Notes: a model not told the origin generated them from the letters alone. A DNA stretch of 64,000 nucleotides from Kiloniellaceae bacterium (GCA_021776135.1 JAJFGL010000012.1:23258-87257), one strand, 5' to 3'. Counted from the stretch's first letter, positions 4,115 through 64,000 are shown. Numbers and translations: made by a program.

Positions 4115-4132
4115 GGCGTCCTAGTGCGGTGG

Positions 4133-8073: not shown

Positions 8074-8131
8074 CGGTGCTTCAAGCTTTCCAAACTCTTC
8101 TCAAGCCGCGGCAATAGCGGAACATTGAACC

Positions 8132-12425: not shown

Positions 12426-12529
12426 CACCCCCACCCCAACCCTCCCCCGTCGAAGGGGGAGGGGGTAAGAGGAATAGCACTGTCTTTTTCTCCCTCCCCC
12501 CTTGAGGGGGAGGGTTGGGGGTGGGGGGA
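12426..12529. repeat. pair of G/C-tract hairpins forming a composite inverted repeat between convergent genes
   Basis: cacccccaccccaaccctcccccgtcgaagggggaggggg (12426-12465) and ctccctccccccttgagggggagggttgggggtgggggg (12491-12529). Each is internally palindromic and the two are near reverse complements of each other. Confidence 0.8.
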
Positions 12530-12637
12530 CTTGCGGTGCCGGGAACCCTTTCAGGCGGCTATCGCAAAATTATACCGGACAACAGTGGGCGCTTATCCAG
12601 GATTTTGGGTGCCTGGGGATGATGATTCACCGCTTCT

Positions 12638-37480: not shown

Positions 37481-37557
37481 TGGTCGGGGAGAGAGGATTC
37501 GAACCTCCGGCCCCCGCCTCCCGAAGACGGTGCTCTACCAGGCTGAGCTACTCCCCG
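37481..37557 (-). tRNA. tRNA-Pro (anticodon CGG)
   Basis: Reverse complement CGGGGAGTAGCTCAGCCTGGTAGAGCACCGTCTTCGGGAGGCGGGGGCCGGAGGTTCGAATCCTCTCTCCCCGACCA folds as a cloverleaf. Anticodon loop TTCGGGA; encoded CCA. Confidence 0.95.
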
Positions 37558-37633
37558 GAGCGGCCGGTTTATAGCGGCTTGCCAGCGCCTTGGCAACGGC
37601 CGAGCGCCGGCCGGGAAGTACGGAAAAAATGCC

Positions 37634-38764: not shown

Positions 38765-38872
38765 CGCGCGCTAATTCCGCAGTCCGTGATTCCACATCCG
38801 CCACATATAACCCTCGGGCCGGCGTAGTGCGATCCAAAGAGCCTGGGCGTCTATAGTATGCTGATAGGTCGG

Positions 38873-38887
38873 TTAATCTAGGATTAA
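38873..38887. promoter_or_regulatory. CtrA-type box TTAA-N7-TTAA, 109 bp upstream of DUF2336 paralog 1
   Basis: ttaatctaggattaa read directly; matches the TTAA-N7-TTAA consensus exactly. Confidence 0.4.
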
Positions 38888-38962
38888 CACGTTATAATTC
38901 AAATGCTTAGATGATGTTGAATGGTGTAGAGCGCACCCTGCTCCACACATGGCGGCTGTTGC

Positions 38963-40090
38963 TCAGGCCGCGATTTGGCGAAGCTTGGTAATTAAAAACT
39001 CGATATCGGAAGAACTGATATTCATCGTGGGGTCTGGGAAACGGGTCAAGACGCGCTCCAGCATTTTCTCGACATAGCGCTCCCGGTCATTGCTGCCGCC
39101 GTCGTAGTCGGTTTCAACCGCGAGGACTATCGCGGCACGAAACGCCGGATACAGCGTCTTCGGCAACTTGGCCCGTAAGTACAGGGATTCGAGCCCAAGC
39201 ATTCCCGCATCGTGGATCAGCAGTTGTACATTTTGTAACGGCAGACCCGTTAACGTCGCGACGGAACGTTCGAAGAACGCCAAGTCGCCCGTGCACAAGG
39301 CGCGCAAGAGCAACGAAGGCGTTAAGCCGTTCTTGCGATGAAGCTGAGCGATCAAGGTATCGAGTTCGTCATCGCTGGAGCCATTGTCCAGAAGGCTCAT
39401 GATGGCCCGTTCGCGAACCTGGAGGATGAGATTGCTTGCGATATCGGGCGACACGTCATGCTTATCGATCAGGTATTCATGCAAGCGGTCGGACATCGCG
39501 GCGACCACACGCTCTGAAATGGCGGGGGGAAGATCGAGCCGCCGGGTCAAGGAATCCGTCACCGCGGTGCTGCTTGAATAATTCTCCACGACCCGGTCGT
39601 AGGCCGTTTCGCTTATCCGCGCTCCTTCATTGCGCACCAGGCGCGCCACCGCTTCTTCGTTGCCGGTATCCACCAAGGCGTCGGAAACCTGCTCTGAGAC
39701 CTGGGGCCGTTGCGCGACAGCCGACTGTTTCGCGGCGCTCTCGCCGCGAACAATGGCGATCAGATCTTCATCGGTCAGAACATCGGAGACCTTGAGTAGC
39801 GGCAAGGCGACCGACTCCACATCCCGAGCCAAGGTAAGGGCGACATCGCGTGGCAAATCCGGGTTGGTCTTGAGGTGCGCGGACAAGGCTTGGCGCACGC
39901 GAATCTCGGCATCCGCCGAAAGGAGCCGGAAGATATCTTCCGCGATGCGCCGTTCCTTGTCGTTGAAGGCCGAGACATCGAAAGACTTAGCTATAGTGGT
40001 CGTGGTGGCGGCGCGCGCCTCGGGGGATGGATCGGAAAGCAGACGGGCAACATCGTCTTTGCTCAGCCATTGCGTGTTTTTTTCCGTCAT
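38963..40090 (-). CDS. DUF2336 domain-containing protein (paralog 2)
   Basis: ATG 40090 (MTEKNTQW, parallel to MTEEIVRQ of paralog 1). The ORF track extends to 40147. Confidence 0.8.
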   Translation of the reverse strand: MTEKNTQWLSKDDVARLLSDPSPEARAATTTTIAKSFDVSAFNDKERRIAEDIFRLLSADAEIRVRQALSAHLKTNPDLPRDVALTLARDVESVALPLLKVSDVLTDEDLIAIVRGESAAKQSAVAQRPQVSEQVSDALVDTGNEEAVARLVRNEGARISETAYDRVVENYSSSTAVTDSLTRRLDLPPAISERVVAAMSDRLHEYLIDKHDVSPDIASNLILQVRERAIMSLLDNGSSDDELDTLIAQLHRKNGLTPSLLLRALCTGDLAFFERSVATLTGLPLQNVQLLIHDAGMLGLESLYLRAKLPKTLYPAFRAAIVLAVETDYDGGSNDRERYVEKMLERVLTRFPDPTMNISSSDIEFLITKLRQIAA

Positions 40091-40199
40091 ATCGAACTGG
40101 CACCGTTTGTTTGGTTGCCCTGCGGCATCCGGAATGGCTCCGGTCATGGACCGGAAAAATACTCGCCTACCTCAAGGAATAGTATGACTTATGCCTGGT

Positions 40200-49584: not shown

Positions 49585-50140
49585 GGGCCGGCGCCTGGAG
49601 GCGCCCGATGGTCTGGCTGTGCGCCCGACCGCGGACCGCACCCGCGAATCCATTTTCAATATCCTGACCCAGGGCAAGCTCGATTGGCGCCGGTCCGGCG
49701 CGGCGGCGAATAACCCCCTGCAAGACGCGCGGGTGCTGGACGCCTTCGCCGGCACCGGGGCCCTGGGGCTCGAAGCGCTGTCGCGCGGTGCCGGCGCGGT
49801 TATTTTCATGGAGGAACACGCCACCGCCCTGGCCGCGTGCAAGCGCAACATCGCCGCCCTCGGTGAAGCCGCCCGTGCCCAAGCGCTCCAGTGCGATGTC
49901 CTGCGCCCGCCGCGCGCCGGAGCGCCGTGCGAGCTGGTGCTGATGGACCCGCCCTACAATCAAGGTCTGGCGCCGCCCGCCTTGCGCGCACTCCTGGCTG
50001 CGGGCTGGCTGGCGCCGGGGGCGCTGACCGCGGTCGAACTCATGGCCGTCGAAGACTTCGATGCGCCGGCGGAATTCGAAATCCTGGACGAGCGCAAATA
50101 CGGCAAGGCGCGGGTCGTGTTCCTGCGCGCGCCGGTTTAG
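49559..50140 (+). CDS. rsmD: 16S rRNA (guanine966-N2)-methyltransferase
   Basis: ATG 49559; MRIVGGRHRGRRLEAPDGLAVRPTADRTRESIFN and LVLMDPPY. Confidence 0.9.
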   Translation: MRIVGGRHRGRRLEAPDGLAVRPTADRTRESIFNILTQGKLDWRRSGAAANNPLQDARVLDAFAGTGALGLEALSRGAGAVIFMEEHATALAACKRNIAALGEAARAQALQCDVLRPPRAGAPCELVLMDPPYNQGLAPPALRALLAAGWLAPGALTAVELMAVEDFDAPAEFEILDERKYGKARVVFLRAPV

Positions 50141-50149
50141 CGGTTTCGG

Positions 50150-50506
50150 TTAACCCCCCGGCGCTTCGTGGGTCTTGACCTGGCCGCGCGCCTTGCGGGC
50201 GTGGTCTTCCAGTTGCCGGGCGGCGGCGTTAAAGGAATCGCGTACCGCCACATACACGTCCTCGTGGGCGTGGTTGCTGGCGCCGCTCCGGTTCACGACG
50301 ATCTCCTTGCCGGGTACGGAGATATCGATCCGCACCTCATAGACGATACCCTTGTGGCTATGCTTGTGGGGGGCCTCGACCACCACCCGGCAGCCGATTA
50401 TCCGATCGAAATAGCGCTCCAGTTTTGACGCCCGCTCCCGGACAGTGGCCTCGACGGCGTCGGAACGGTCCATATTGTGGAAAGTCACTTCCAAGGGAAT
50501 CTGCAT
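50150..50506 (-). CDS. HPF/RaiA family ribosome-associated protein
   Basis: 118 aa; MQIPLEVTFHNMDRSDAVEATVRERASKLERYF. Confidence 0.8.
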   Translation of the reverse strand: MQIPLEVTFHNMDRSDAVEATVRERASKLERYFDRIIGCRVVVEAPHKHSHKGIVYEVRIDISVPGKEIVVNRSGASNHAHEDVYVAVRDSFNAAARQLEDHARKARGQVKTHEAPGG

Positions 50507-50600
50507 ATCCGGTATCCTTCTGGGTTAACCCAAGCGGCGCTTCGTCCCGTGAGTATAGCGCGCGGACCGGCCTAGGGTTCCTTGATTTCCCTCAAGACAT

Positions 50601-52400
50601 CTAGCGGCGCCCGAACAGGCGTTCGATATCGGCCAGTTTCAACTCGACATAGGTCGGGCGGCCATGATTGCACTGGCCGGAATGGGGAGTGGCCTCCATC
50701 TGGCGCAGCAGGGCGTTCATCTCGTCCACATTGAGGCGGCGTCCGGCCCGCACCGAACCGTGGCAGGCCAAGGTGCCGCAGACCTCTTGCAAGCGTTCCT
50801 TGAGGGCCAGGGATTGACCGATTTCCGCCAGTTCGTCGGCCAAATCGCGGACCAGGCCCTGCACGTCGAGATCGCCCAGCAGGGCCGGCACCTCGCGGAC
50901 CACCACGGCGCCGGGGCCGAAGGCCTCGAGCACCAGTCCCAGGGCGGCCAATTCTTCGCTACGCTCGCTCAAGCGCGCCGCCGCCTCGGGCTCCAATTCC
51001 ACCACCTCCGGCATCAAAAGCGCCTGGCGGGTCACGCCTTGGGCGGCCATTTGCTGCTTCATGTCTTCGTAAACCAGGCGCTCGTGGGCGGCGTGCTGAT
51101 CGACGATGACAATGCCGTCGGCGGTTTGCGCGACCACATAGGTTTCATGGACCTGCGCCCTGGCGGCGCCCAAGGGGTAGTCCGCGTCCAGGTTTTCCGG
51201 CGCCTGGTCCGCGGCCGCGCCGGGCGCCGCCGCCAGCGCCGGCAAGGGCGCTTGGCCCGCCAGGGATGTTTCGGCCAAGCCTCGTGGCGCTACGCCGCCG
51301 GCGCGGGCGCGCCAGGTCTGGGCCACGCCTGGATTATGGCCGGGGCGAAAGGCGCCCAGGGCCGCCTGGGCCACGCTGCTTGATGCCCGGTGTCCCGCTT
51401 CGGCCAGGGCATGGCGGCAGGCGCCGACGATCAGGCCGCGTATCAGGCCGGGATCGCGAAAGCGGACCTCGGCCTTGGCCGGGTGGACGTTCACGTCGAC
51501 CGCCTCGGCGGGCAGGTCCAAAAACAGAGCCAGAAGGGCGTGGCGGTCGTGGGCCAGGAAGTCGTGATAGGCGCCGCGAACCGCGCCGTGGAGCAGCTTA
51601 TCGCGCACCGGGCGCCCGTTCACGAAGAGGTACTGATGGCGCGCGTTGCCCCGGTTCAGGGTCGGCAGGCCGATATATCCGCTGAGTTTGACGCCCTCGC
51701 GTTCGGCCTCGATGGGCAGGGCGTTGGCGGCGAAATCCCGGGCCATGACCGCGCCCAAGCGTGCTAGCCGCGTATAATTAAGTGCGCCTTGCGTAGAGGG
51801 TAAGTGCAGTAATTTGCGCGTTCCGTCGAATAAAGTGAAGCCGACCCGGGGGTGCGCCATGGCCAAGCGCTGCATGGCGTCGAGGACATAGCCCTGCTCC
51901 GTGCGCGTGGTCTTGAGGAACTTCAGACGCGCCGGGGTGGCGAAAAAAAGATCCCGCACCTCGATCCGGGTGCCGGGGGCTTGCGCGGCCGGGGTCAGCG
52001 CGCCGCGCCGTCCGCCCTCGACGCTCAGGGACCAGGCCTGGGCGCCGTCTTGCCCGCCGCGGACCCGGCTGGCGAGGCTGAGGCGCGAGACCGCGCCGAT
52101 GGAGGGCAGGGCCTCGCCGCGGAAGCCCAGGGTCGCGATGTTGACCAGATCGTCGCCGGGCAGCTTGGAGGTCGCGTGGCGCTCCAGGGCCAGTTCGATC
52201 TCGGGCCCGCTCATGCCCTGGCCGTCGTCGGCGACCGAAATAAATGTGCGGCCGCCGTCGCGCAAGACCACGTCGATCTGCTTGGCGCCGGCGTCCAGGG
52301 CGTTTTCGACCAGTTCCTTGACCGCCGCCGCCGGGCGCTCGATCACCTCGCCGGCGGCGATGCGGTTGACCAGGGTTTCCGGCAGGCGGCGCAGGGTCAT
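50601..52400 (-). CDS. mutL: DNA mismatch repair endonuclease MutL
   Basis: ATG 52400 ([39 protein letters not shown]). Start overlaps the pgi stop (ATGA). ORF-track entry 50601-53255 is over-extended. Confidence 0.95.
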
Positions 52401-53701
52401 GTCTTGGCCCCGTCCAGATAGTTCCGGGTCAGAACCTTGCTCTCCTCGACCGCCGGCTGATCGAAGGGGTTCACCCCCAGAAGATCGGCGGCGAGGATGG
52501 TCTCGAGCATGAAATGCATCATGAGCCCGCCCAGTGCCGCCTCGTCCACCCGTTCCACCGACAGCAGCCGCACCGGGCGGCCATTCTTCGCCAGGGTCTC
52601 GGCGGTCGCCCGGGCCGAGGCGGCGATCAGGTCGCCCAGGGGCCGCCCGGCCAGGTAAGCGGCCCCGGCGGCCTTGGCGAAGGCCGCGTCCATGACCGGC
52701 CCTTCGCCGCCGCAGGCGGGCATGACCAGGGTGAACATCTTGTCGCGCGGCCCGGCCAGGTAGAGCTGCAGCTGAGAATGATGATCCGCCGTGCCCAGGG
52801 CCCGCAGGGGCGTGGTGCCGGTGCCGTCCTTGCCCAGGCTCTCGGCCCAAAGCTGCCGGTACCAGAGGCCCAGGTTGGCCCAGCGGTCCTCGTAGGTCAT
52901 GAGAACGCTTTGCGTAATGCCCCGTTCCTGCAGCAGCCCCATGGCGATGGCGGCGCCCAGGGCCGGGGCCACGTCCTCGACCCGCTTCGCCTCCAGGGCG
53001 GCGCGCAGAACTTCGTTCGCGCCACGCCGCAAGGCCGCCACATCGAGCCCGGCGAGCAGCCCCGGCAAGGCGCCGACAACGGAAAACACGGAAAACCGCC
53101 CGCCGATCCCCGGGTGGTGCGCGATGACCCGTAGGCCGTGACTGGCGGCGATGCGCGACACAGGGCTCTCCCCCGCCTCGGTGATGACGACCGCATGATC
53201 GCCAAGCGCCGCCCGCCCCACCGCCGCCGCCAAGGCCGGCAGCAGGACCGCGCACTGAGCCAGGGTTTCCGCCGTCCCGCCCGATTTGGAGATAATGACC
53301 AGGCCGGTGCGCGCCAAGTCCAGCGCCCCCAGGAGCGCCGCCATGGTGTCGGGATCGACGTTATCGAGGAAGTGCAGACGCGGCCCGCCCAGGGCCGGCC
53401 CGAACCCCCGGTCCGAAAGGGCATACAAGGTCTTGCCGCCCAGGGACGAGCCCCCGGTGCCGAGGATAACCGCGTCGTCCAAACGCCCGCGCCAATCCTC
53501 GGCCAGGGCGCTCAGGTCTTCCAGGTCGCCGCTGTCCCGGACAACGCCCAAGGCCGGCAAACCGCCCGCGCCGAAAACCTGGCACAGCCGGTCATGGGCC
53601 GGCGCGGCGGCCATGAGCCCGCGCGTCAGGGCCCCATCGCTCAAGCCCCCTTCGCCGATATGATCGGCCAGGCAGGTATCCGTCAGGTGTTTGAAGGTCA
53701 T
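52397..53701 (-). CDS. pgi: glucose-6-phosphate isomerase (short bacterial type)
   Basis: 434 aa; [13 protein letters not shown], two SIS-like halves, C-terminal [10 protein letters not shown]. Confidence 0.9.
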
Positions 53702-53868
53702 GATGGCGGCAAGCTATCAGAGTCGCGGGACGCCGGGAAGCGGGCGGTGGGAGGAAAATGCGACGGAATGCGATTTGAGGTGCCGAGAGCGCAAGGTCGA
53801 ATCGAATGTCGGTTCAGCGGATGAAAGCGGTCGTTGTTCTTATGCGATGAGAGAGTCCGGGGTTAGCC
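53664..53868. repeat. direct repeat copy A (native pgi 5' end plus ~170 bp upstream)
   Basis: tcggccaggcaggtatccgtcaggtgtttgaaggtcatgatggcggcaagctatcagagtcgcgggac...ggatgaaagcggtcgttgttcttatgcgatgagagagtccggggttagcc. Recurs at 62533-62739 and in part at 57392-57490. Confidence 0.85.
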
Positions 53869-54050
53869 ATTTTCAAAAGTTCGCCGGATTCGGAATACCG
53901 TCAGCTCAAGGGCTGGAATCGACCCAACGCGGACGTTCATGGGCAAGCCCGTTTACTTCCGCTTTGGGGGCAGAAGGAAACATTAGACAATGATTACTAT
54001 ATTCTAGTATTGGTTGTGATCCAACTTGGTTTTCTTTTAGACTGCCTTAA

Positions 54051-55817
54051 ATGGACCGTTTTGAATTCACCCGGCTTTTTTGTGAACGTCCCCAATCGTA
54101 TGCATGGTTTTTGGGTGCTGGTGCGTCCCGGAATGCGAATCTTCCAACTGCGGAAGACATCCTTACAGATTTAAAGCGGCGTTATTACTGCTCGGAAGAA
54201 AATCAAGAATATTCCACCAAAGATATGCAGAACGAGGCAGTGAGGTCGACCGTTGAGGCATATGTCAAGACGCGCGGTTTTCCTGAACGTTGGGCTCCCG
54301 AAGAATACACAACATATTTTCAGACAATCTTCGGTGAAGACCGTGAGCGGCAACGTCGATACATAATTGGCATGTTAGCGGAAGACCGCGTTCGACTAGC
54401 CGTCGGTAATCGTGTGTTCGGCGCGCTCTTGGCAAGCGGTCTCGCGCGAGTCGCGTACACAACGAATTTCGACACCGTCGTGGAAAAATCGATCGCGGAA
54501 ATCGCCGGAAAGTCACTTTCTGCGTTTCACCTCGAAGGCGCGCATGGTGCAATTGCTGCCATCAACAACGAAGCGTATCCATTTTACTGCAAACTACATG
54601 GTGACTTTCGCTATGACAGCATCAAAAACCTCCAAGCCGATCTTGCCTCACAGAATGAAGACTTGTCGCGCAGTCTTGTAAATGCCGCCAATCGTTTCGG
54701 TCTGATTGTTGTTGGCTACTCCGGACGCGATGCCAGCGTCATGGGTTTACTGCGCGAAGCTCTCGACAACTCAAATCCGTTTCCCCATGGCGTATTCTGG
54801 ATGATCACCAAAGGGTCAGCGGCACCCAAACCAGTTACTGAATTTATAGAAGCCGCGCGTGTACGCGGTGTAACAGCCGAAATGGTGGAGATCGAGACTT
54901 TTGACACCTTAATGCTCCGCCTATGGCGGAATTTGACTGAGCGTCCAGAAGGTATGGACGAGAAGGTACGCAAGGGGCGCGTTGATGCCGTGTCTCTTCC
55001 AATTCCGGAGACCGATGGCGATAGACCGTTGATGCGGTACAATGCCCTTCCGGTTTTATCTATTCCTGATACGTGTTTTATCTTGGAACTGAAAACCAAG
55101 CCGACTTGGGAAACCGTCGGTCCTACTCTCAGGGAAGCTGACCACAATCTCATCACGACCGTTGATGATGATTTGATGGCATGGGGCGATCTTGATGATG
55201 CGCAATCGGTGTTCGGTGACGACTTTGTTGGCTCGTCAGAACATAGTTTCGAGTCGGACTGGCGAAAGACAGGCCGGTTGCACATCAAAAAGTTCTTAGA
55301 AGACGGCATAGGTAAAGCGTTCGCGCGCACGCGTCCGCTTCTCATGCGTCGGCGAGGATCTGGCGTCGTGCTGATCGTCGACAAGATGGCGGATGACGTG
55401 GGCATATTCGAACCACTCCATGCGATAACGGGCAAGACGACTGGCACAATCGCAGGCTTGTCCATTCCCGAAACTGAAGAGCACGATGCGGTCAACAAAG
55501 TGGACTTCGCAGAATCGGTTCGGATCAGTCTCGCATGGGGCGATGACCGTCTTTGGTTGCTGCTAAAGCCTGACGTGTGGATTTGGCCCCCATTCGCACG
55601 TCGTCACGCAACTCAATGGCTGGAGAAACGGAGGGGAGATCGAAGAAACGACAAGCACGATATGCTATTGAGCGCCTGGATATCCGTGCTCACCGATGGC
55701 GCAGGTCGCGCCGAAGACGTGACCCTCACGGCTTTTGAAGGTGAATCAGGACCGGGGAACCCATCCTATAGAATCTCCAGCAGAACCGGATACTCGAACA
55801 AGCGGGGACGCCGATGA
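54051..55817 (+). CDS. SIR2-APAZ protein (SIR2_2-type NADase domain + Argonaute-associated APAZ-like C-terminal region)
   Basis: 588 aa. [14 protein letters not shown] (aa 19-32), YTTNFD (N139, D141), CKLHGD (H183), VVGYSGRD (aa 220-227). About 330 further aa carry no enzyme motif. Stop overlaps the pAgo start. Confidence 0.85.
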
Positions 55818-57253
55818 GCTCAATCATTCTACCCGCCTACGTGTCGGTGCCAGAACCTGAACTATTGTTCCACAATAAGGGCAGAGATCGCCATCCGCTG
55901 CGAGGGCTCATTGATCATGGTCCGTTTAGCTTGCGGTTTGGTGCGCCTTCACGCGTCAGGTTCGCACTCGTCGCTCCCAAAAACGAAATGGCCCGGCTCG
56001 AAAACCTTGTTCATGAATTGGGTCAAACCGCAAAGCCGCGAGAAGCGATAAACTACTACCCGGACTATCCCGGATTTGAGACGGTGTTCCGCACTCCAAT
56101 CGCGCCGATCGATGACACACTCAAATTCGTGCTTCCGCAGGACTTGGACCGGTTCGCAGATGAAAACGACAAAATCAAAATGGCGCGTTTGCTTTTTTCT
56201 GAGATCGCGAAGCTGCGTACTCTCAAGGGGCAATTCGATGTCGCCCTGATTTATCTGCCGCGTCGATGGAGCGCTTGCTTTGAAGGCGAAAACTTCAATC
56301 TTCACCATTACCTAAAAGCGTTCTGCGCTCCGTCTCAGATTCCGATCCAGATTCTAAACCAGGACAGCTTCGACAGAATATGTCGCGCAAACGTCATGTG
56401 GGGGTTGTCCGTGGCGCTGTTCGCGAAGGCGAACGGAGAACCTTGGAAGCTGACAGGTCTCGACCCTCAAGAAGCCTTCATCGGCATCAGCTACGCGATG
56501 CGGAGAAAAGCTGGCAACAGCGGTCAGGAATACACAACATGTTGCAGCCAAATATTCGACCCAGACGGCACAGGGTTTAGGTTTGTTGCCTATGATGCAA
56601 AGGAATTCACTGAGGATCGACGACGGAACCCTTACCTTTCCTACTATGAAATGCAGTCGGTGCTTTCAAAGAGCATGTACGTCTACCAGCAGGGTCATGT
56701 CGGGCGCACGCCCAGAAAAATCACGATCCACAAAAATACCGAATTCAAGCCGGAGGAGATTGAAGCCGCGCTTGATAGTTTCAATGAGGGTACGGAGGTT
56801 GAATTGGTCCAGGTCGTTCAATCAACGGATTGGGCAGGCTTACGTTACACACCAGGCCGGGCCGCTTCGATAGACAAACCCGCCGAAAGTCAGAAAGCGC
56901 ACAACTATCCAGTAGAGCGGGGAACATATGTTCCGATGAGCGCAAATGAAACGCTGGCGTGGACGCAAGGAAGTGTCCGGGGTGTGCAGCTTCAGAACCC
57001 AAATTATTATGTCTACAAAGAAGGGGCGTTAAAGCCTACACCTTCACCAATTTTACTACGTCGCTTTTCGGGATCAGGTGGCTGGCACGAGACGGTCAAC
57101 GGAGTTCTTTCGCTAACCAAAATGGATTGGAACAACAATACGCTCTATAAGAAACTACCGGTCACCATGGTGTATTCCAGTCGTTTTGCGGAGATCATTC
57201 AGCAGAACCCAGAATTGGTTGATCAGGTCTATGATTTCCGCTGTTTCATGTGA
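55814..57253 (+). CDS. short prokaryotic Argonaute (MID + PIWI only, predicted catalytically inactive)
   Basis: 479 aa. [20 protein letters not shown] hallmark and H164-x3-K168...Q179...K205 pocket spacing. PIWI catalytic positions read as S226 (FIGISY), N308 (IHKNT) and S456 (VYSSRFAE). ggggac RBS before ATG 55814. Confidence 0.85.
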
Positions 57254-57391
57254 ACCTGCGTTATGTACGCAATTGGGATATTAGCGGACGTTACGTGCGG
57301 CCATGGCCAACGGCTCCTCTTGGCCGATGGTTGCCATTGCTCTCCAATCTGGTCAATGACCGATTAGGGTCAGATTCAGAGATTCCAATGA

Positions 57392-57490
57392 CCCCTCGCC
57401 GATATTATCGGTCAGGTGTTAGAAGGTCATGATGGTGACAAGCTAACAGAGTCGCGGGACGGCGGGCAGCGGGCGGGGGTCGGAAAATGC
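57392..57490. repeat. direct repeat copy B (degenerate pgi 5' end plus upstream)
   Basis: The reverse strand reads atg acc ttc TAA cac ctg acc gat aat atc ggc gag ggg (pgi codons 1-19 with K4 to stop and a 15-nt deletion), then gatggtgacaagctaacagagtcgcgggacggcgggcagcgggcgg. Confidence 0.8.
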
Positions 57491-57593
57491 CGCAAAAATG
57501 AAATTCGCTGGCTCTAACTGCATTGAAAACACACAACCGGAAACGAAAGGCGCGCCAGGATCTTGGCCGCCGTGCGGTTTTGAATGCGCGGTT

Positions 57594-58475
57594 CTATCGG
57601 GGCGCGGGGGCGCCGTGAATGATGCCTTTTTCGCGGCCGGTGACGCGGGTCTGGCGCATGCGCCGCCGCCAGCGGCTGGCATCGTACCCCGTCCCCCGGT
57701 GCAACATGCAGCGGTTGTCCCAGATCGCCGTATCGCCGGCTTGCCAGCCATGGGCGTAGATGTGCCGCGGTTGCGTCGCGCGTTCGAGCAGCTCGTCGAG
57801 CAGACGGCGGCTGTCGATACCGGACCAGCCCGGGATCGAGCGGGCGTGCGAGCCGACGTAATAGTTCTTGAGGCCGTTCGCCGGGTTTTCGCGCACCAGC
57901 CGGTGCATGACCGGAGGCAGCGATGCCGCGTGGTTCGGATCGACCGGCGCGACCTGGCTTCTGGAAAAGACGTAGTCATGGATCACGCCAAGCGGCGCAA
58001 TCGTTTCACGCAGGTCTCCGTCCAGCTGCCCATAGGCCGCGCGCATGCTGGCGAAGGCGGTCGCGCCCCCTTCGCCCGGCACCTCGTAGGCGTGGAGAAT
58101 CGAGACGAAGGACGGCACCTCGCGAAAGGAGGAGTCCGAATGCCACAACTGGTTGCCGGTCGCGTAGCGGGTGCTGGCATGGGCGTTGTCGCGCTTCGAG
58201 CCGTCATCCTCCACGTTGCCGACGGTGCCGAAGTAGGTCACCTTTCCGGTCTTCCCGAGGGTCACGTGTTCGGCCTCCGCCTCACCCAGAAGGCGGGTGA
58301 AGGCCAGCTGCTTCTCGTCGGTCATGTCCTGGCCGGGAAAGCATAGGAACGAATAGGTATCGATCGCGTCCCGGATCGCCGCCAAGTCGCCGTCCGGCAT
58401 ATGGCCGGTTAAGGCGGTCCCGGTCACGCGGGCGCCGAAATCATCGTGCAGGGGTTCGATACCGAGGTGACTCAT
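57594..58475 (-). CDS. TauD/TfdA family Fe(II)/2-oxoglutarate dioxygenase
   Basis: 293 aa; WHSDSSF (His-x-Asp facial triad region) and a C-terminal AIWDNRCMLHR. Confidence 0.85.
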   Translation of the reverse strand: MSHLGIEPLHDDFGARVTGTALTGHMPDGDLAAIRDAIDTYSFLCFPGQDMTDEKQLAFTRLLGEAEAEHVTLGKTGKVTYFGTVGNVEDDGSKRDNAHASTRYATGNQLWHSDSSFREVPSFVSILHAYEVPGEGGATAFASMRAAYGQLDGDLRETIAPLGVIHDYVFSRSQVAPVDPNHAASLPPVMHRLVRENPANGLKNYYVGSHARSIPGWSGIDSRRLLDELLERATQPRHIYAHGWQAGDTAIWDNRCMLHRGTGYDASRWRRRMRQTRVTGREKGIIHGAPAPR

Positions 58476-58595
58476 GGCCGCTAAAGTGGTGGTTCCAAAT
58501 TATCCAATAACCCTCGGCCATGGCATAGTCGAATTATCCCCCGGCGGCGAGTCGAATTTCGAATCGCCGGCGCGAAATAGTGAACTATAACTTGG

Positions 58596-59567
58596 TCAGC
58601 AGCCCGCGACGCAGATGCCGCCGCCGTCGAACTCCATGGTCCTTTCGCTCAAGGGTAGGTGCACCGGCACCTTGACCGCCGTGATGAAGGCGTCGGTCTT
58701 GGTGCCGGCGACGACCTTGCCGCCCTCTGTGGCGACCTCGTTGGCGTGCGAGACAATGACGCTGTTCGGCTTGACCAGGTCGTTGATAACGAAGGCCGCT
58801 TCCGTCGGCCCGGTGGTGAAGACGTCGCCGATGTTCATGACCGCGAGCGTGGCCTTGTAGTGCCGGCGTACCACGCTGTCCTGCTCGGCGGTAATCCCGG
58901 TATCGCCCGACAGGTAAACGACGAGCCCGTTCGAGAAGGTCAGCACGTAGCCGGTCGGCGGGCCGGCATAGCCCGCGAGGCCGGCCGCCTTGAGCAGTTT
59001 TCCAAGTTCGCCCCCGATAAAGGCTGGATTGACGCCATTCGAGTGAACCGCCGGAACGGTGGTGATCTTGACGCCGCCGAACGCGCGCGCCGAGCCGAAG
59101 CGCGCGAGTTGCGATTTTTTCTCATCGCCGCCCAGCGCCTTCAACTTGGCGCCGAAAAACTTCCGCATCTCGCTGCCGGTGACAATCGTCGCGTTCTTGG
59201 CAAGGGCGATGTTGACGGTGTTGGTGTTCGGCGCCGCCGTGACGGAAAGCGTCGGCTCGCCGCAGGTTCCCGCGTTGGGCTGCGGCTGATGCTTGTCGCC
59301 GGCATGGTCGCCATGCATGTGGCTTACCAGAACCACATCGATCTTGCCGAGGCGCGGATCCTTGGCGCCCGCCACCGTGCGGCCCGCGTCATACAAAATT
59401 CTCGTGCCGTTCGGATCCTCGAAGATCATCGCCCGGTCGAATTTGCAGAATTCGCCTTTTACGAGCCCAAGCGGGGTGACCTTCACGTTGGCCGCCTTAG
59501 CGGGATGCCCGGCAAGGCCCACTAACCCGGCGGCCAAGGCCACCAGGACATAACGAATGGTGCGCAT
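58596..59567 (-). CDS. secreted MBL-fold metallo-hydrolase
   Basis: 323 aa; signal peptide MRTIRYVLVALAAGLVGLAGHPAKA; VLVSHMHGDHAGD metal motif. Confidence 0.8.
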   Translation of the reverse strand: MRTIRYVLVALAAGLVGLAGHPAKAANVKVTPLGLVKGEFCKFDRAMIFEDPNGTRILYDAGRTVAGAKDPRLGKIDVVLVSHMHGDHAGDKHQPQPNAGTCGEPTLSVTAAPNTNTVNIALAKNATIVTGSEMRKFFGAKLKALGGDEKKSQLARFGSARAFGGVKITTVPAVHSNGVNPAFIGGELGKLLKAAGLAGYAGPPTGYVLTFSNGLVVYLSGDTGITAEQDSVVRRHYKATLAVMNIGDVFTTGPTEAAFVINDLVKPNSVIVSHANEVATEGGKVVAGTKTDAFITAVKVPVHLPLSERTMEFDGGGICVAGC

Positions 59568-59883
59568 CGGATGCTCTCCTTCTAACTAAGTGCCCGTTAC
59601 CCGAATCCTCCCCCGCATCCCCTGAGTTTATCGATTTTCAGGTTCGGAGAAAGTGGGTTCGCTCATCTTCGCAGCCTTGCGTGAGAGCACAGGCGCGCAC
59701 GAGTTCTTAGGTCATACACGAAATAAAAATTCCCTTACTATTAGAAAACAATGATTAAAATCAAATATTATATCGCTGCAATTTTCACATCACGTATGTT
59801 TTATCAAGAATATGTCATATAAATATTGTAAAATACTCGTGTGTGCACTATATGTTTATTGGCAGCAAATCATTGCTGCCGGA

Positions 59884-60045
59884 ATGAAAGACATTTACAT
59901 GTCCTTTAAGAATTTTTCCTCGGCACAAGACGCCTCGAGTAAAAGCAGCCCCGGCGACAAGTCCAAGCCCGCGCAGGCCGCCGTTCAACCGGCCACACAA
60001 CCTGACAAGACACCGGACGAAGCCGCGCCGACGCCCAAGTCGTAG
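59884..60045 (+). CDS. small Pro/Lys/Ala-rich hypothetical protein (start 59884 or 59899)
   Basis: Short ORF after a very AT-rich spacer; low-complexity sequence, uncertain. Confidence 0.3.
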   Translation: MKDIYMSFKNFSSAQDASSKSSPGDKSKPAQAAVQPATQPDKTPDEAAPTPKS

Positions 60046-60122
60046 CCGTCGGATTGGAGGGAGCAAAAGCCGCCTCCGCCACGCGTGAATTTGACGGTGA
60101 GGCCGCAAGCAGGACCCAGCCG

Positions 60123-60458
60123 ATGACGATGCGCACGAGCAAGAAAACGGTGACTTTCAGGAAGCCCTTCATCCTGGGCGGGTTCGATGAGGTGCTGCCG
60201 GCCGGCGCCTACAGCGTGGAATCCGATGAGGATCTCTTGGAAGGTGTTTCCTTCCCCGCCTACCGGCGGGTTTTGACCGTCATCCACCTTCATGCGAAGC
60301 CCGGCTATCCGAACCGTACGCAGACTTTGACAATCGTACCGAGTGAATTGGACGCAGCCCTGGAGCGCGACAAGGCGCCCGCATTGCCCCAAGAAAAGAG
60401 CGACCGTCAAGCCATGGAACGAGGCGAAGACGAGGGGATGTTCGTTCACCCTAGGTGA
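60123..60458 (+). CDS. conserved hypothetical protein
   Basis: ATG 60123 within ORF 60054-60458; TVTFRKPFILGGFDEVLPAGAYSVESDEDLLEGVSFPAYRR; no family name recognised. Confidence 0.5.
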   Translation: MTMRTSKKTVTFRKPFILGGFDEVLPAGAYSVESDEDLLEGVSFPAYRRVLTVIHLHAKPGYPNRTQTLTIVPSELDAALERDKAPALPQEKSDRQAMERGEDEGMFVHPR

Positions 60459-60720
60459 ACAACCGCCTCATAGAGCCTTTGAGTACGGGTGTTGCCAAAT
60501 TTAAGGCTCAAGCGGGTAGCGCTGAGTGAAGCCGCGATCCACTGGCGCGCCCTGGGCTAATCCAGAGCCGGTGCGCGTCTGTGGGAACCCACAGAATGCA
60601 CACGCGAAGCATAACGGTAACGGCTGGGATTGCGATCGGCCTTACCGAAAACAAAGCGATGGGGTCGCTTCGCGTTGAAGCGAGAGTAAAGAGTGCGATC
60701 ACAGAGAAAGGCATGAGACT

Positions 60721-61032
60721 ATGACGGACGAAACGGTCGACCTCGACGAGCGTCGCGGCATGGCCGCTCAAAAAGCGACGGAATTTCGCCGCCAGCGCCT
60801 CCACGAGTTTCATTCCGACCAGGCGGCCTTGCAACGCCGCCAGGAAGAGCTCGAGAGACTTCTCCTGGCCGCTCCGGCAGAGACTTGGCCGGAGGCAGCC
60901 GCCAAGGCGCAGTATCTTATCCAGCTCTTCGCCGCCACACTGGAGGCTCAGGAACCGCGCCGCAAGGAACTGATCGCCCACGCACTCGACGATCTCACCC
61001 GTCTGTGCGAGCGCGCGAAGGAAGAGTCATGA
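60721..61032 (+). CDS. hypothetical helical protein
   Basis: 103 aa, predicted coiled/helical. Stop overlaps the next ORF start (ATGA, 61029-61032). Confidence 0.5.
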   Translation: MTDETVDLDERRGMAAQKATEFRRQRLHEFHSDQAALQRRQEELERLLLAAPAETWPEAAAKAQYLIQLFAATLEAQEPRRKELIAHALDDLTRLCERAKEES

Positions 61033-61220
61033 CCAAATCCACGGCGGCAAAAGCGCTCGGCGATCAGCCGTCCTTGGAAGACCCCAAGGTTCGCCAATGC
61101 CTCAGATGCCAAGCCACGTTTCCGAGCAAGTGGTCCGGCGAGCGGATCTGTTTTCGCTGCAAATCTACTAATGCATGGCGGAACGGCGCGCCGCTTAGGT
61201 CCAGCTCTTTTTCGCAATAG
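61029..61220 (+). CDS. small zinc-ribbon protein (CxxC...CxxC)
   Basis: 63 aa; CLRCQATFPSKWSGERICFRCK. Translationally coupled to 60721-61032. Confidence 0.5.
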   Translation: MTKSTAAKALGDQPSLEDPKVRQCLRCQATFPSKWSGERICFRCKSTNAWRNGAPLRSSSFSQ

Positions 61221-61280
61221 ACATTAGAACTCTACCGCCAAGCGGCCGAGCCGCATACGCCAAGGAAGGAACCTAAAAAT

Positions 61281-61466
61281 ATGAACACGTCAAATCGTGG
61301 ATCGAAGCATGTCTGCCGGAAGTGCGAGAGAATGTATTACGATCTGGGAAAGCAGATCGTCGCTTGTCCGATATGCGGCGTTAAGCCGCTTCCGCAGAAA
61401 GCGCCAAGAGCGGCTTCGCCGGTTAGAAAAGCCGTCTCCACGGCCTTCAGGCGATACCCGGCGTAG
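61281..61466 (+). CDS. TIGR02300-like (FYDLN-acid family) zinc-ribbon protein
   Basis: 61 aa; CRKCERMYYDLGKQIVACPICG. Confidence 0.6.
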   Translation: MNTSNRGSKHVCRKCERMYYDLGKQIVACPICGVKPLPQKAPRAASPVRKAVSTAFRRYPA

Positions 61467-61477
61467 GCTCTCGCAAC

Positions 61478-61741
61478 ATGACATTGAATTTTCCGAACCG
61501 GAGCCGCAGCTACGAGGAAAGACGGAACCTTGTTCGCTTCTGGGGATATGACACCGCGCTGGAGATTTCGTTTTTCGTGGAGGTGAGCGCTCTCTTCAAG
61601 TTGTATCCGCAAACGAAGAACGAGGAAGCCGGCTATTTGGAGGCGTTCGATACCGCTCGGGACAGAATCCACGAGGCCGCCCGCAAGGTCTATTCGAAAA
61701 CCCGCCAAGGCGCCTACATCCTGGCCGCGGCGGATTTCTGA
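61478..61741 (+). CDS. DUF1488 domain-containing protein
   Basis: 87 aa; MTLNFPNRSRSYEERRNLVRFWGYDTALEISFFVE. Confidence 0.7.
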   Translation: MTLNFPNRSRSYEERRNLVRFWGYDTALEISFFVEVSALFKLYPQTKNEEAGYLEAFDTARDRIHEAARKVYSKTRQGAYILAAADF

Positions 61742-61977
61742 ATTTGCCCGGTATTTCTCTGGCCCAACCTCGTCTTAATTGAGAGGGAAGATCCCAAATA
61801 TCGTCAAAATATCCGTATCGAATATATTATAAAAAGCATTGTTATCAGAAGATTACGGAGCAATATAGCCGGCTATTTATTTTTATTAATATTTAGGTTT
61901 TACTGACTTCTATTTTCGGGTATATTTATAGGTTATTGAGGGGAGAAATAATTTTTCCCCAAAGGGAGAACAACCAA

Positions 61978-62328
61978 ATGAAACAACTTGAATGGCTAAA
62001 GCCTGCACTATTTGGCGCCGCGGCCGGTGCTGTCGCGCTCGCGGTCGTCGGCTTCTCATGGGGCGGATGGATGACCGGCGGGGCGGCCGAGAAATTGGCC
62101 TACAATCAGGCGCGGCTCGAAGTCGTCGCCGCCTTGGTGCCGATCTGCATGGAACAGTCCAACCAGGACCCGCAGGTCGTGGCCATGCTTGCCCAGTTGA
62201 AGGACACCAGCAGCTATCAGCGCAACGACATGCTCATGAAAGCCGGCTGGGCCACGATGCCAGGTTCAAGCGATCCCAATCGGGACGTCGCGCGCGCGTG
62301 CATGGCAAAACTGGCGGCCCAGTTCTAG
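61978..62328 (+). CDS. hypothetical membrane-anchored protein
   Basis: ATG 61978 with agggaga RBS; one TM helix ALFGAAAGAVALAVVGFSWGGW. Confidence 0.55.
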   Translation: MKQLEWLKPALFGAAAGAVALAVVGFSWGGWMTGGAAEKLAYNQARLEVVAALVPICMEQSNQDPQVVAMLAQLKDTSSYQRNDMLMKAGWATMPGSSDPNRDVARACMAKLAAQF

Positions 62329-62357
62329 GGTCTTTACGGTTCTAGGGTCTTTACGGT
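62324..62357. repeat. 17-bp perfect tandem duplication (x2) spanning a stop codon
   Basis: ttctagggtctttacgg at 62324-62340 and 62341-62357. The first unit contains the TAG stop of 61978-62328. Confidence 0.9.
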
Positions 62358-62447
62358 TTTGATGGAATCAAAACCGGATCCTAAGTTTTTTGTTTTGTCG
62401 TGTTTCCGGACGGAAAACCGGCATCCACATTTCCTGGAACCACTCTA

Positions 62448-62570
62448 GGACTTCGGCGCCTTCCTATTCGACACCACGCCATCCGGCCGCCCGACAATAA
62501 CCACCGCCAGCTTGTCGGCGTCGTAGAGCCGTTCGGCCAGGCAGGTATCGGTCAGGTGTTTGAAGGTCAT
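62448..62570 (-). pseudogene. pgi 5' remnant: first 12 codons identical to pgi ([12 protein letters not shown]), then unrelated sequence to a stop after 41 codons
   Basis: Reverse strand from ATG 62570: atg acc ttc aaa cac ctg acc gat acc tgc ctg gcc gaa..., ending with tag at 62448-62446 by my hand translation (end coordinate approximate). Confidence 0.6.
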
Positions 62571-62739
62571 CCTGGCGGCAAGCCATCAGAGTCGCGGGAC
62601 GGCGGGAAGCGGGCGGGGCTGGTTCGTGTATCGACGTGAAATTTTATGCGCCGCGAGAGTGGATGGCGAAGTTGAATGCCGGCTATGCGGCTGAAAGCGG
62701 TCGTTGTTCTTGTGCGGTGAGAGAATCCGGGGTTTGCCA
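62533..62739. repeat. direct repeat copy C (pgi 5' end plus upstream)
   Basis: Aligns with 53664-53868. Both ends are near-identical (tcggccaggcaggtatc...gcgggcgg; ctgaaagcggtcgttgttcttgtgcggtgagagaatccggggtttgcc) and the middle is more diverged. Confidence 0.85.
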
Positions 62740-62999
62740 GGCGCGGACATTAGGACGCGGGATGTGTGAGCCGTCCACTGCATCCAGACCTGACTCTGCC
62801 AGCGTGGGTGTGCTGTGTCTGCTGTTGGAGCCAAGACGGGATTTCCAGGCCTGACCGCACCCACGGCCGAGTTTAACCCTGAGGCGACAAAGCGGATCCC
62901 TTGCCAAGGGTAAATTATGGCTAAGGGAAAATTAAGGCGTTCTCGTCTATTGGTGGAACATTCCGCACATGCTTCACGAGGTCTGGGAGGGGAAGCGCC

Positions 63000-64000
63000 G
63001 TGACTACGTTAGTGGGTGCCAGCAACGGCGCCACCAAGCCTTCGCACCGTGGACGAGCCGAAACCGCGGGGTCCTATGGCCTGACGACACAGATCCGTCT
63101 GCTGGCCGGCTTGCTGGTGTTCAGCCTGGCGCTGACATTGGCGCTCCTGTTCTGGTCGGCGAAGAGCCAGGATAAGATCGCGGTCGGCAGCTCTCGCCAT
63201 CTTGCCAGCACCGCGCTAGGCGTGCAGCTGGGCTACCTGAAAAAGATCCTGACCGATTACACCTACTGGGACGAGGCCTATCAGAAAACGGTCGAGACCT
63301 TCGATACCGACTTTTTCGATGAGAACTTTGGCGCTGGCGATTATCTCCGGGATACCTTCGGCATCACCTCCAGCTTTGTCATGGGACCGGACAATCGGGT
63401 GCTACGTCACATGCACGACTCGGTGATTGTCGAGGACGCAGGGGCAATGAACATCGACGCCCACATGGAAGGCGTTTTCAGCAAGCTCATCGAAAGGGCG
63501 CGCCGCGCGGTCGCCGGTGAGTTTCTGGCAACGGGTGGTTTTGTCAAGGTGGCTGACCAGTTGTACTTCGTGGCGGTCCGGGTCATCCATCCACATACCG
63601 AAGACTTGTTGGCAAAGGCCGAGATCACGCCAGCCAACGCCTATGTCGCTGTCTTTATGCGTCCGCTCGACGACGAATTGCTGCAAACTCTCGCTCGTGA
63701 TTTTGATCTCAAGAACCTCAGCTACGTTGCCGATATCGATCTACCCAGCGGTCTCACGCAGCCGCTCTATGGCGCGGATGGCCAGCAGTTTGGTACTTTG
63801 AAGTGGCAAATCGATCTGCCCAGCCGCCATGTGCTGTACGGCGTCTTACCCGCGTTGCTGGCTACCATCGTATGCATTGGGTTGCTGAGCTGGTACGTTC
63901 TGAGCCGCCTGCGCCGTGGCCAAACGGAACTGTGGCACGCGATGCAACGGGCGCAGTCGGCGGACCAAACCAAGACCGAGTTCCTGGCCAACATGAGCCA
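63000..64000 (+). CDS. CHASE4-type sensor histidine kinase, 5' partial (runs off the window); absent from the ORF track
   Basis: Hand translation from GTG 63000 gives an open frame to 64000: TM (LLAGLLVFSLALTLALLF), periplasmic YTYWDEAY...LYFVAV region, second TM, then the H-box start QTKTEFLANMS. Start codon uncertain. Confidence 0.75.
   Translation, partial: MTTLVGASNGATKPSHRGRAETAGSYGLTTQIRLLAGLLVFSLALTLALLFWSAKSQDKIAVGSSRHLASTALGVQLGYLKKILTDYTYWDEAYQKTVETFDTDFFDENFGAGDYLRDTFGITSSFVMGPDNRVLRHMHDSVIVEDAGAMNIDAHMEGVFSKLIERARRAVAGEFLATGGFVKVADQLYFVAVRVIHPHTEDLLAKAEITPANAYVAVFMRPLDDELLQTLARDFDLKNLSYVADIDLPSGLTQPLYGADGQQFGTLKWQIDLPSRHVLYGVLPALLATIVCIGLLSWYVLSRLRRGQTELWHAMQRAQSADQTKTEFLANMS

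Follow-up and report, generated by a model that had tools for sequence, protein, structure and literature searches.

The stretch upstream of pgi in this Kiloniellaceae genome is, in our moderately confident reading, a cargo hotspot between the core genes M16b and pgi, in which three copies of the pgi start are the scars of additive insertions. Homologous recombination at the 5' end of pgi, either a single crossover (Campbell-type) or one-sided, is the probable, though not secure, route by which the cargo came in, and it would have left behind the fragments of the flanking genes. The evidence comes from the whole 64-kb stretch of DNA analysed here (the window) and from the corresponding loci of related genomes.

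The pgi leader and first codons occur as three direct copies, A (53664-53868), B (57392-~57525) and C (62533-62739), all oriented like pgi on the minus strand and recovered by a repeat search and MAFFT alignment at the positions given for them in the earlier note. The search of the repeat against the window that the note had proposed returned these three copies and no others. When up to 3 mismatches are allowed, a 21-mer of the pgi start matches only A, B and C, and so does a 20-mer of the leader, for chance expectations of 0.00 and 0.03 matches, respectively, confirming that the repeat is real and far above chance. Copy A is made up of pgi nt 1-38 and ~167 nt of leader, the latter comprising a proximal part (53702-53747), a variable patch (53748-53783) and a distal part (53784-53868). 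Copy C has pgi nt 1-38 and ~169 nt of leader, and copy B a degenerate version of pgi nt 1-54 with ~95 nt of leader. Copies A and C align with 172 matches, 27 mismatches and 13 gap positions, their identities being 37/38 over pgi nt 1-38, 42/46 in the proximal leader, 22/37 in the patch and 71/86 in the distal leader. The alignment of A and B has 107 matches, 24 mismatches and 17 gap positions. All three copies are mutually diverged, with a longest exact run between A and C of ~21 nt, and their alignment is a mosaic of shared positions without clear polarity. As had been noticed before, copy C retains the ATG and 12 identical pgi codons, in an ORF at 62445-62570 on the minus strand. Copy B does carry the two described lesions, a change of codon 4 from AAA (Lys) to a TAA stop and a 15-nt deletion, which lies between short GAT repeats, but its leader homology runs on to ~57525 instead of ending at 57490. 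Copy A is the working pgi start, and B and C are non-functional fossils.

The end-points of the copies differ from one junction to the next, both on the pgi side (+38, +54 and, for a repeat found in the related MAG L163, +140) and on the leader side (~-40, ~-95 and ~-167). The overlap common to all copies, including both of those in L163, spans ~-40..+38. A recombinase core site could hide in this overlap, a point to be set against the homology-driven explanation.

As for the nature of the repeated leader, it has no Rfam match at E≤1, its alifold consensus is weak and devoid of covariation, and single-sequence z-scores range from -0.4 to +2.2. A structured RNA or riboswitch was rejected on this absence of an Rfam match, of covariation and of stable structure. 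A phage or viral origin of the repeat was also rejected: the pgi-start 20-mer is absent from IMG/VR viral contigs, and the matches to a distal-leader 17-mer in the same collection are those expected by chance, none of them being extended by nhmmer.

Pfam, NCBIfam and PADLOC searches bore out the proposed order pgi-A-[SIR2/pAgo]-B-[TauD, MBL]-C-[CHASE4 kinase]. The intact pgi gene (52397..53701, minus strand; Pfam PGI, NCBIfam PRK03868) codes for a glucose-6-phosphate isomerase of 434 aa, with 81% aa identity to that of a Kiloniellaceae MAG. Downstream of it lies mutL (50601..52400, start approximate, minus strand), with the Pfam domains MutL_C, DNA_mis_repair and HATPase_c_3 on the extended ORF. 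The two genes form a conserved pair whose order is kept in L163 and other relatives.

Island 1 (53869..57391, plus strand, ~50% GC) carries a gene for a SIR2-APAZ protein of 588 aa (54051-55817, plus strand; PADLOC Aga_SIR2-PNTD1-PNTD2, E = 4.6e-186) and one for a short pAgo of 479 aa (55814-57253, plus strand; PADLOC pAgo_I, E = 1.2e-186), which overlap by 4 nt. From the adjacency of SIR2-APAZ and short (MID-PIWI) pAgo genes and from family-level profile matches, the pair is predicted to be a SPARSA module. It resembles the SPARSA defence systems already described (PMC9097488, PMC11452484) in its two overlapping genes and very strong profile matches. Nothing unusual was noticed in it, and it is cargo rather than part of the repeat phenomenon. 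The module is flanked by stretches of ~130 nt.

Island 2 falls into two halves. The one proximal to pgi (57594..59567, minus strand, GC 60-68%) contains Pfam-supported genes for a TauD/TfdA dioxygenase (57594-58475, minus strand) and a hydrolase of the metallo-beta-lactamase fold (MBL; 58596-59567, minus strand). Their homologues in GCA_021776175.1, with 87% and 77% nt identity, respectively, lie in an ordinary stretch of chromosome, 5.8 kb from each other. The distal half (59600..62444, plus strand, GC 43-60%) holds small ORFs, among which a FYDLN_acid ORF (61281-61466, plus strand) and a DUF1488 ORF (61478-61741, plus strand). On the other side of copy C, a gene for a CHASE4 sensor histidine kinase, identified by translation and Pfam, has an open frame from 62925 and runs off the window (62925..64000, plus strand). 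Its GC content is 57-60% and its best database homologue is 61% identical, and it is probably further cargo. The repeats thus bracket accessory DNA, as proposed earlier, whose composition (~50% GC for SPARSA, 43-60% for the small-ORF patch) is unlike that of the core (~68-73%).

The island side of copy C holds a further trace. Remnant X (62445..62532, minus strand) is an 88-nt piece of the M16 peptidase gene M16b, namely its last 29 codons with the stop, which continues the reading frame of pgi after codon 12. Its product matches the C-terminus of the M16b encoded on this same 92,439-bp contig (P0005) at 29/30 aa, and at the nt level the segment is 76-81% identical to the 3' end of M16b in the related genomes L003, L004, L163 and L168. 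At this junction (62532/62533), which is seen in one MAG contig only, a point against the explanation favoured here, the order is permuted: pgi nt 1-38 comes first and the 29 terminal M16b codons after it, opposite to the native arrangement. The two segments share at most 4-5 nt of similarity at the join, where the protein predicts GCCGA versus GCCAA. The permuted junction requires an illegitimate join and a duplicative insertion. Such an order is expected at the closure point of a circle or at the end of an incoming fragment. Given that X is so similar to its own genome's M16b and that the leaders of A and C are only ~83-91% alike, X must be younger than the leader copies, or of other ancestry. 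As the full M16b gene is present on the same contig but outside the window, the array probably continues beyond 64000. An integrase could sit in that outer part, up to M16b, which is also to be borne in mind against the explanation we favour.

The order ileS-lspA-DUF3035-M16a-M16b-pgi-mutL is kept across dozens of relatives, and in most of them, including the closest cargo-free ones (L002-L004), the end of M16b and pgi are 46-200 bp apart. Judging from this gene order, the insert-free state is M16b-pgi, and not pgi beside the CHASE4 kinase, the arrangement that the earlier note had put up for checking. The kinase was rejected as a native pgi neighbour: relatives have M16b in its place, and the low-GC kinase gene has no close homologue. 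The same gap contains genes for a membrane protein and ParDE in L163, CMD, Lumazine_bd and TetR genes in L168, and low-GC inserts in L006 and L082. With its conserved M16b and pgi flanks and a cargo that differs among the window and these four loci, the gap behaves as a cargo hotspot in several Kiloniellales genomes, in agreement with the earlier proposal of a pgi-proximal hotspot. Defence or addiction cargo is present in the window (SPARSA) and in L163 (ParDE), the other cargo being metabolic or regulatory. It is thus a mixed hotspot, documented in a handful of genomes.

Two of these genomes have kept debris comparable to that of the window. In L163, the ParDE cassette is flanked by a pgi repeat of 180 bp (-40..+140), whose two copies are identical over ~95 nt and then diverge, with the end of the remnant resembling the window allele. 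On sequence grounds, this pattern looks like the hybrid left by a single crossover. In L168, the gap harbours a displaced internal fragment of M16b (aa 369-392, 22/24 identical). Remnants of the pgi 5' end were found at only 2 of ~170 pgi loci, which counts against the homology-driven explanation, L163 being the only convincing case of the same scar at another pgi locus; a repeat in L143 was set aside, as it sits downstream of pgi. No closer relative or same-species empty site was found, the pgi cluster at 90% identity having one member and the best metagenome match being at 76%.

Recombination at the pgi 5' end would most likely have proceeded as follows. Related strains would supply DNA of this same gap, which would enter the cell with its own pgi leader and first codons and would recombine with the resident pgi 5' region via short homology. 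The incoming molecule might be a circle, integrated by a single crossover, or a linear molecule with one homologous and one illegitimate end. Both routes would add cargo instead of replacing the resident content; in both, leader and pgi would stay intact on the near side, and the resident pgi start would be left in truncated form on the far side. The join between pgi codon 12 and M16b codon -29 at copy C would represent the illegitimate junction of one such molecule. As A, B and C share no exact run longer than ~21 nt, RecA-mediated exchange between the present copies should be inefficient, and the events would therefore be old or would have involved better-matched alleles. Of the two modes of integration that the earlier note had left side by side, site-specific or Campbell-type, the latter fits best; the former is at odds with the absence of a recombinase in 53.7-64 kb and with end-points at +38, +54 and +140. 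The scenario of two successive insertions is too simple, in view of the M16b remnant at C, of the TauD and MBL homologues at same-lineage-level identity elsewhere in a relative's chromosome, and of a distal leader copy at another L168 locus.

The components of this scenario have known counterparts. In a conjugation study in Escherichia coli, circular DNA with one homology arm integrated by single crossover, generating target duplications of 109-950 bp (PMC3240628). Likewise, direct repeats of the target segment bracket the inserts in both the window (A, B and C) and L163 (the ParDE cassette), their length is variable (~95-205 bp in the window), no dedicated recombinase is needed and a hybrid allele pattern is found, here in L163. 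Unlike in that experiment, the events considered here are natural, old and diverged, and the circular intermediate is hypothetical. Unlike in plain Campbell-type integration, the other flanking gene is involved as well, through an illegitimate join at one junction. The locus also resembles the products of homology-facilitated illegitimate recombination, in that foreign DNA is added beside a conserved anchor gene with a junction of little or no homology. In the classical form of that process, the recipient DNA between anchor and join is usually deleted, whereas the recipient sequence is duplicated here. Finally, fixed core-gene flanks, a cargo that varies by genome and a lack of obvious mobile-element genes inside are shared with the core defence hotspots cDHS1/2 of Pseudomonas aeruginosa, for which transfer via flank homology was proposed (PMC10250203). 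Those hotspots were described as scar-free and, unlike them, the gap studied here has kept truncated copies of both flanking genes between cargo blocks, in a handful of genomes.

It is tempting to go further and to view the cargo modules (SPARSA, ParDE and others) as integrase-free cassettes, each with a portable pgi leader and first codons as its single homology arm. Such cassettes, once looped out between repeats, would enter the pgi locus of related cells again by host recombination alone, and selection for an intact promoter of the pgi-mutL pair would always regenerate a functional leader. We regard this extended form of the model as improbable.

Site-specific tandem accretion is an unlikely alternative, if one with several points in its favour. 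Elements whose tyrosine or serine recombinases recognise a site within the leader or the first codons of pgi would have integrated in turn, the repeats being attL, hybrid and attR, and the present blocks would be integrase-less, CIME-like derivatives (cis-mobilizable elements) mobilised in trans. As in ICE/IME/CIME arrays, tandem blocks are separated by direct repeats from one end of the target gene: islands 1 and 2 lie between copies A, B and C, and pgi has been restored intact. For ICEs and IMEs, there is ample documentation of tandem accretion at a single att site. The overlap shared by all copies and the location of the far end of the array outside the window are also compatible with accretion. 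In contrast to such arrays, the visible part contains no integrase, the repeat boundaries vary at every junction, the target is the 5' end and leader of a protein gene, and a fragment of the opposite flanking gene is present. No integrase or recombinase domain was detected by Pfam, NCBIfam and PADLOC in any ORF of 53.7-64 kb, and hence none at an element end there, nor was a recombinase found in the core flank (32-50 kb), an integrase near tRNA-Pro, or homologues of the recombinases of L165 and L167 in the window. Near-identical SPARSA modules of other genomes do reside in elements that encode large serine recombinases, a relaxase and TraG, but at the DNA level the homology to other carriers spans 54003/54030-57255 only and goes no further than the two ORFs. 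An att x att exchange would leave the M16b remnant at pgi codon 12 unexplained, the displaced M16b fragment of L168 shows that flank debris is not pgi-specific, and viral contigs lack the pgi-start 20-mer.

Somewhat less likely still is an in situ tandem duplication, in which an illegitimate sister-strand exchange would have doubled the segment from the last 29 codons of M16b to pgi codon 12, creating the pgi/M16b join, before the copies lost, gained or replaced cargo. The end of a segment joined to its start is the classical signature of such an event, X matches its own genome's M16b, and TauD and MBL look lineage-native, their 77-87% nt identity to a relative being near the 80% of pgi. However, the leaders of A and C have diverged by 9-17% outside the patch (22/37 identical within it) and X shows no aa change in 28 codons, which is inconsistent with a single duplication date unless gene conversion took place. 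Moreover, the DNA upstream of C, with the kinase gene, has no similarity to that upstream of B or A, and the hybrid allele pattern of L163 would go unexplained.

The repeat might instead be a dispersed or regulatory sequence, a portable promoter or leader or a small mobile repeat beside many cargo genes, whose threefold presence near pgi would be incidental to insertion; we consider this very unlikely. The distal ~120 nt of the leader do occur once at an unrelated L168 locus, within 1.9 kb inserted between ribF and ileS, where no flank duplication was found, and in A, C and L168 they end at the same ...GCCA boundary, facing a divergently transcribed cargo gene. Nevertheless, every copy in the window also includes 38-54 nt of genuine pgi coding sequence, the window has no copies besides A, B and C, Rfam matches and structural signal are lacking (z-scores about 0 or above), and this is the one off-locus copy in ~2 Mb of related loci. 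The distal leader may travel with cargo for reasons outside the homology-driven model, which is a reservation about that model.

That a metagenome assembler concatenated strain variants of the hotspot is highly improbable: the window does come from a MAG contig, Logan contigs break near copy B and within X (contig L162 stops exactly 30 nt into it) and the copy C junction is without independent support, but 52149-57380 (A and island 1) and 57361-62474 (B, island 2 and part of X) recur at 100% identity in a Logan assembly made independently from run SRR15505516, and with no exact run of ≥22 nt shared between copies and ≤4-5 nt of similarity at the pgi/M16b join, a de Bruijn assembler had nothing to mis-join.

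The locus is a well-documented example of a known process rather than of a new principle. How core hotspots without a recombinase gain defence and accessory genes is usually inferred from flank conservation alone, as a clean double crossover goes without a trace. At this locus the traces have been kept: both flanking genes left truncated copies, pgi and M16b meet in a permuted junction, and a second genome has a hybrid repeat. Taken together, they draw a concrete and testable picture of insertion that is additive and driven by homology. Its value is that of a worked example and of a site for read-level or PCR tests. As for the cargo, SPARSA, an Argonaute system directed against plasmids and phages, appears here as a bare two-gene unit moving between recombinase-bearing mobile elements and a chromosomal hotspot.

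The start of pgi (52397-53701, minus strand, Pfam PGI) is present in three direct copies, as the earlier note had claimed. A repeat search of window positions 50000-64000 returned a three-copy direct family (53664-53747, 57393-57476 and 62533-62616) with a two-copy extension (53784-53869 and 62654-62739), and alignment confirmed the register. Two short repeat-unit probes, for which 0.00 and 0.03 matches were expected by chance, matched the positions of the copies only (64-kb window, up to 3 mismatches). Copy A (53664-53868) is the true pgi start with ~167 nt of upstream sequence. Copy B (57392 to ~57525) extends to pgi nt 54 and shows in the alignment both the TAA at codon 4 and the 15-nt deletion ascribed to it previously, and the ATG and 12 codons identical to pgi reported for copy C (62533-62739) were recovered in its ORF. 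Between A and C, with 172 matches, 27 mismatches and 13 gap positions in total, identity is graded along the unit, at 37/38 in the pgi part, 42/46 in the proximal leader, 22/37 in a variable patch and 71/86 in the distal leader. The present copies have no exact run of more than ~21 nt in common, and for this reason B and C are best regarded as fossils. The relationship among the three is mosaic and star-like, the patch being common to A and B, the distal part to A and C, and two point states to B and C.

The proximal ~46 nt of the leader are common to A, B, C and the functional copy of L163, a locus of the related MAG GCA_021776175.1. They contain the motif GCGACTCTG(A/T)TAGC (53713-53726, 57442-57455 and 62582-62595), also found upstream of pgi in the comparison loci L002, L004, L082 and L163, and conserved 12-35 nt before the pgi ATG in all Kiloniellaceae relatives; it may represent an operator or promoter element. 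A similar GGACTCTCTCA lies in the distal leader, at its far end. The distal ~120 nt (53745-53868 and 62614-62739) are common to A, C and the L163 remnant, and are missing from L002-L004. Their single off-locus copy, on the JGI contig L168 (2508-2628, minus strand), stops at the same ...GCCA boundary and is part of a 1.9-kb insertion between ribF and ileS (2451-4392) that carries a beta-lactamase-family gene and has no flank duplication. The idea that the repeated leader is an RNA element was rejected, as it gave no known-RNA match and no structural signal. A repeat of another kind was seen in L143, where a 76-nt copy (5340-5415, 88% identical) of the -91 to -17 segment upstream of pgi sits ~1.9 kb downstream of that gene.

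The closest pgi proteins are from Kiloniellaceae MAGs (81%, 77% and 76% amino acid identity), with no closer relative in the metagenome collection or the 90% protein cluster. In these relatives, as in dozens of Rhodospirillales/Kiloniellales loci, the order is ileS-lspA-DUF3035 lipoprotein-M16a-M16b-pgi-mutL, usually with 46-200 bp between the M16 peptidase gene M16b and pgi. Judging from this gene order, the insert-free neighbour of pgi is M16b and not the CHASE4 kinase, which had been envisaged as directly adjoining pgi in strains without the insert. None of ileS, lspA, M16a and M16b is found in the window, but an M16b protein, P0005, is encoded on a 92,439-bp NCBI contig that we infer, from its matching length, to be the one carrying the window pgi and pAgo. 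The M16b gene is therefore presumably outside the window, beyond 64000, and the variable region extends past the visible 10.3 kb.

In a BLAST comparison of relatives with the window, the ~90 nt immediately preceding pgi in L002, L003 and L004 matched 62447-62538, which abuts copy C on its island side and corresponds to the 3' end of M16b. There, pgi codons 1-12 run in frame into the final 29 M16b codons (ERLYDADKLAVVIVGRPDGVVSNRKAPKS*), forming a 41-codon chimeric ORF (62445-62570, minus strand) whose M16b part is identical to the C-terminus of P0005 at 29/30 positions, the sole mismatch being at the join. The native order is M16b-leader-pgi, whereas that at copy C is leader-pgi(1-12)-M16b(3' end), a permutation that cannot arise by deletion. 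The join may mark the point where an M16b...pgi segment closed into a circle, the end of an imported fragment or a tandem-duplication junction. Upstream of the chimeric ORF lie a promoter-like site (62669-62641) and the pgi leader, and the ORF might be transcribed into island 2, the TauD/MBL/small-ORF block between B and C, where TauD and MBL share its orientation. One Logan contig of SRR15505516, L162, stops within the M16b remnant, exactly 30 nt from its stop-codon side (62474), a break that is suggestive only, being consistent with bases (k-1-mer) shared with the real M16b. Logan contigs also break 12-30 nt before copy B, L001 at 57380 and L162 at 57361.

The same gap is variably filled in other genomes. 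L163, reached via M16b homologues, has the order M16b, 293-aa membrane protein, 54-codon pgi 5' fragment, ParD, ParE, intact pgi. Its ~830-bp ParDE cassette is flanked by a direct repeat of -40 to +140 of pgi, whose copies are identical over approximately the first 95 nt of pgi and diverged after, and the end of the pgi remnant resembles the window allele; this looks like the reciprocal-hybrid pattern that a single crossover would leave. In L168, CMD, Lumazine_bd and TetR genes follow M16b, and after this cargo comes a displaced internal M16b fragment (13272-13343; aa 369-392, 22/24 identical), the intact gene lying 1.9 kb upstream of it. A weak distal-leader-like match (13209-13264) precedes that fragment and a G/A-rich hairpin-like stretch follows it. 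L006 and L082 have low-GC inserts in the M16b-pgi gap, and in more distant relatives the gap is occupied by genes typical of their lineage, with core GC. Among ~170 pgi loci, convincing pgi 5' remnants are present in the window and L163 only, and this scarring is therefore recent or restricted to their sublineage.

The gene content reported previously (SIR2/pAgo, TauD, MBL and CHASE4 kinase) is correct. GC content is ~68-73% for mutL and pgi, ~50% for the SPARSA block between A and B, 60-68% for TauD and MBL, 43-60% for the small ORFs and 57-60% for the kinase gene, which continues past the window end. SIR2-APAZ and the short pAgo, which form the SPARSA defence module, were each detected by PADLOC with E ~1e-186. 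At identities of at least 90%, the pAgo occurs in a Hyphococcus/Marinicaulis MAG and other contigs, its 90%-identity cluster including genes of L165 and L167 (both 8001-9440) and L166 (7742-9181). SPARSA is found beside large serine recombinases, TraG and relaxase in the alphaproteobacterial contigs L165 and L166, and beside IS630/PIN/ParDE genes in L167. The DNA homology of other SPARSA carriers to the window is confined to the two ORFs (54003/54030-57255) and ends within ~20-50 nt of both, so that what is shared is the bare module alone, which moves as a two-gene unit. The TauD and metallo-beta-lactamase-fold (MBL) proteins of island 2 have homologues in the L163 genome at 87% and 77% nucleotide identity, as compared with 80% for pgi, which suggests that part of the island is relocated lineage-level DNA and not foreign. 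On L169 of that genome, an otherwise ordinary stretch of chromosome, 5.8 kb and six genes separate MBL (1242-2213) from TauD (8001-8879), in the same order and orientation as in the window (58596-59567 and 57594-58475), and the window pair appears to be a relocated or condensed form of this arrangement.

No recombinase, transposase or excisionase domain was found in any ORF between 53.7 and 64 kb, and the recombinases of L165 and L167 have no homologue within the window. The earlier interpretation of the repeats is supported in part, with Campbell-type insertion the better fit and no sign of a site-specific integrase in the visible array. Ordinary core genes make up the 32-50 kb flank, and no integrase is present at its tRNA-Pro(CGG) gene, which is directly adjoined (region 37481-40147) by two DUF2336 paralogues in tandem (37634-38764 and 38963-40147, minus strand). 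Elsewhere, ~110 nt at 12424-12532 match both strands of L169:16635-16749, near thiS/moaE, suggesting a palindromic or inverted element at the L169 site.

A conserved two-gene frame, M16b and pgi, thus encloses variable content, and the end-points of the pgi 5' direct repeats differ at every junction. Cargo would have been added when circularised hotspot DNA integrated by a homology-driven single crossover or, alternatively, through recombination that was homologous on one side and illegitimate on the other. After each event, the resident pgi start would persist distally in truncated form, with an intact leader and pgi on the proximal side, and selection for pgi-mutL expression would keep the complete leader beside pgi. 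In Escherichia coli, circular DNA bearing a single homology arm integrates by this single-crossover route, generating duplications of 109-950 bp and outnumbering true homology-facilitated illegitimate recombination events (PMC3240628). Core hotspots of defence systems devoid of mobile-element genes are also known, and their transfer has been suggested to proceed by flank homology (PMC10250203).

Site-specific accretion of elements at the pgi 5' site would fit the overlap of all copies in -40 to +38, and the distal end of the array lies beyond the window, but we consider it unlikely, as it leaves both the M16b remnants and the variable repeat boundaries unexplained. In-situ tandem duplication of an M16b...pgi segment accounts for the pgi/M16b join; it is rather improbable nonetheless, since an undiverged M16b remnant (62445-62532, minus strand) sits beside leaders whose divergence, the variable patch apart, is 9-17%, and no residual similarity links the segments upstream of A, B and C. 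The off-locus copy in L168 speaks for a dispersed or regulatory repeat, a reading that is highly improbable given that every copy contains genuine pgi codons. Mis-assembly is scarcely credible because the copies share no k-mers and two Logan contigs agree with the window at 100%, although the C junction is seen in the MAG contig only.

It is tempting to speculate that the blocks are integrase-free cassettes that carry their own homology arm and use it to home to pgi, an idea that we regard as rather doubtful. The locus is an accessory and defence hotspot flanked by core genes and bearing probable Campbell-type duplication scars. This is a known kind of thing, unusual here mainly for how legible its scars are.
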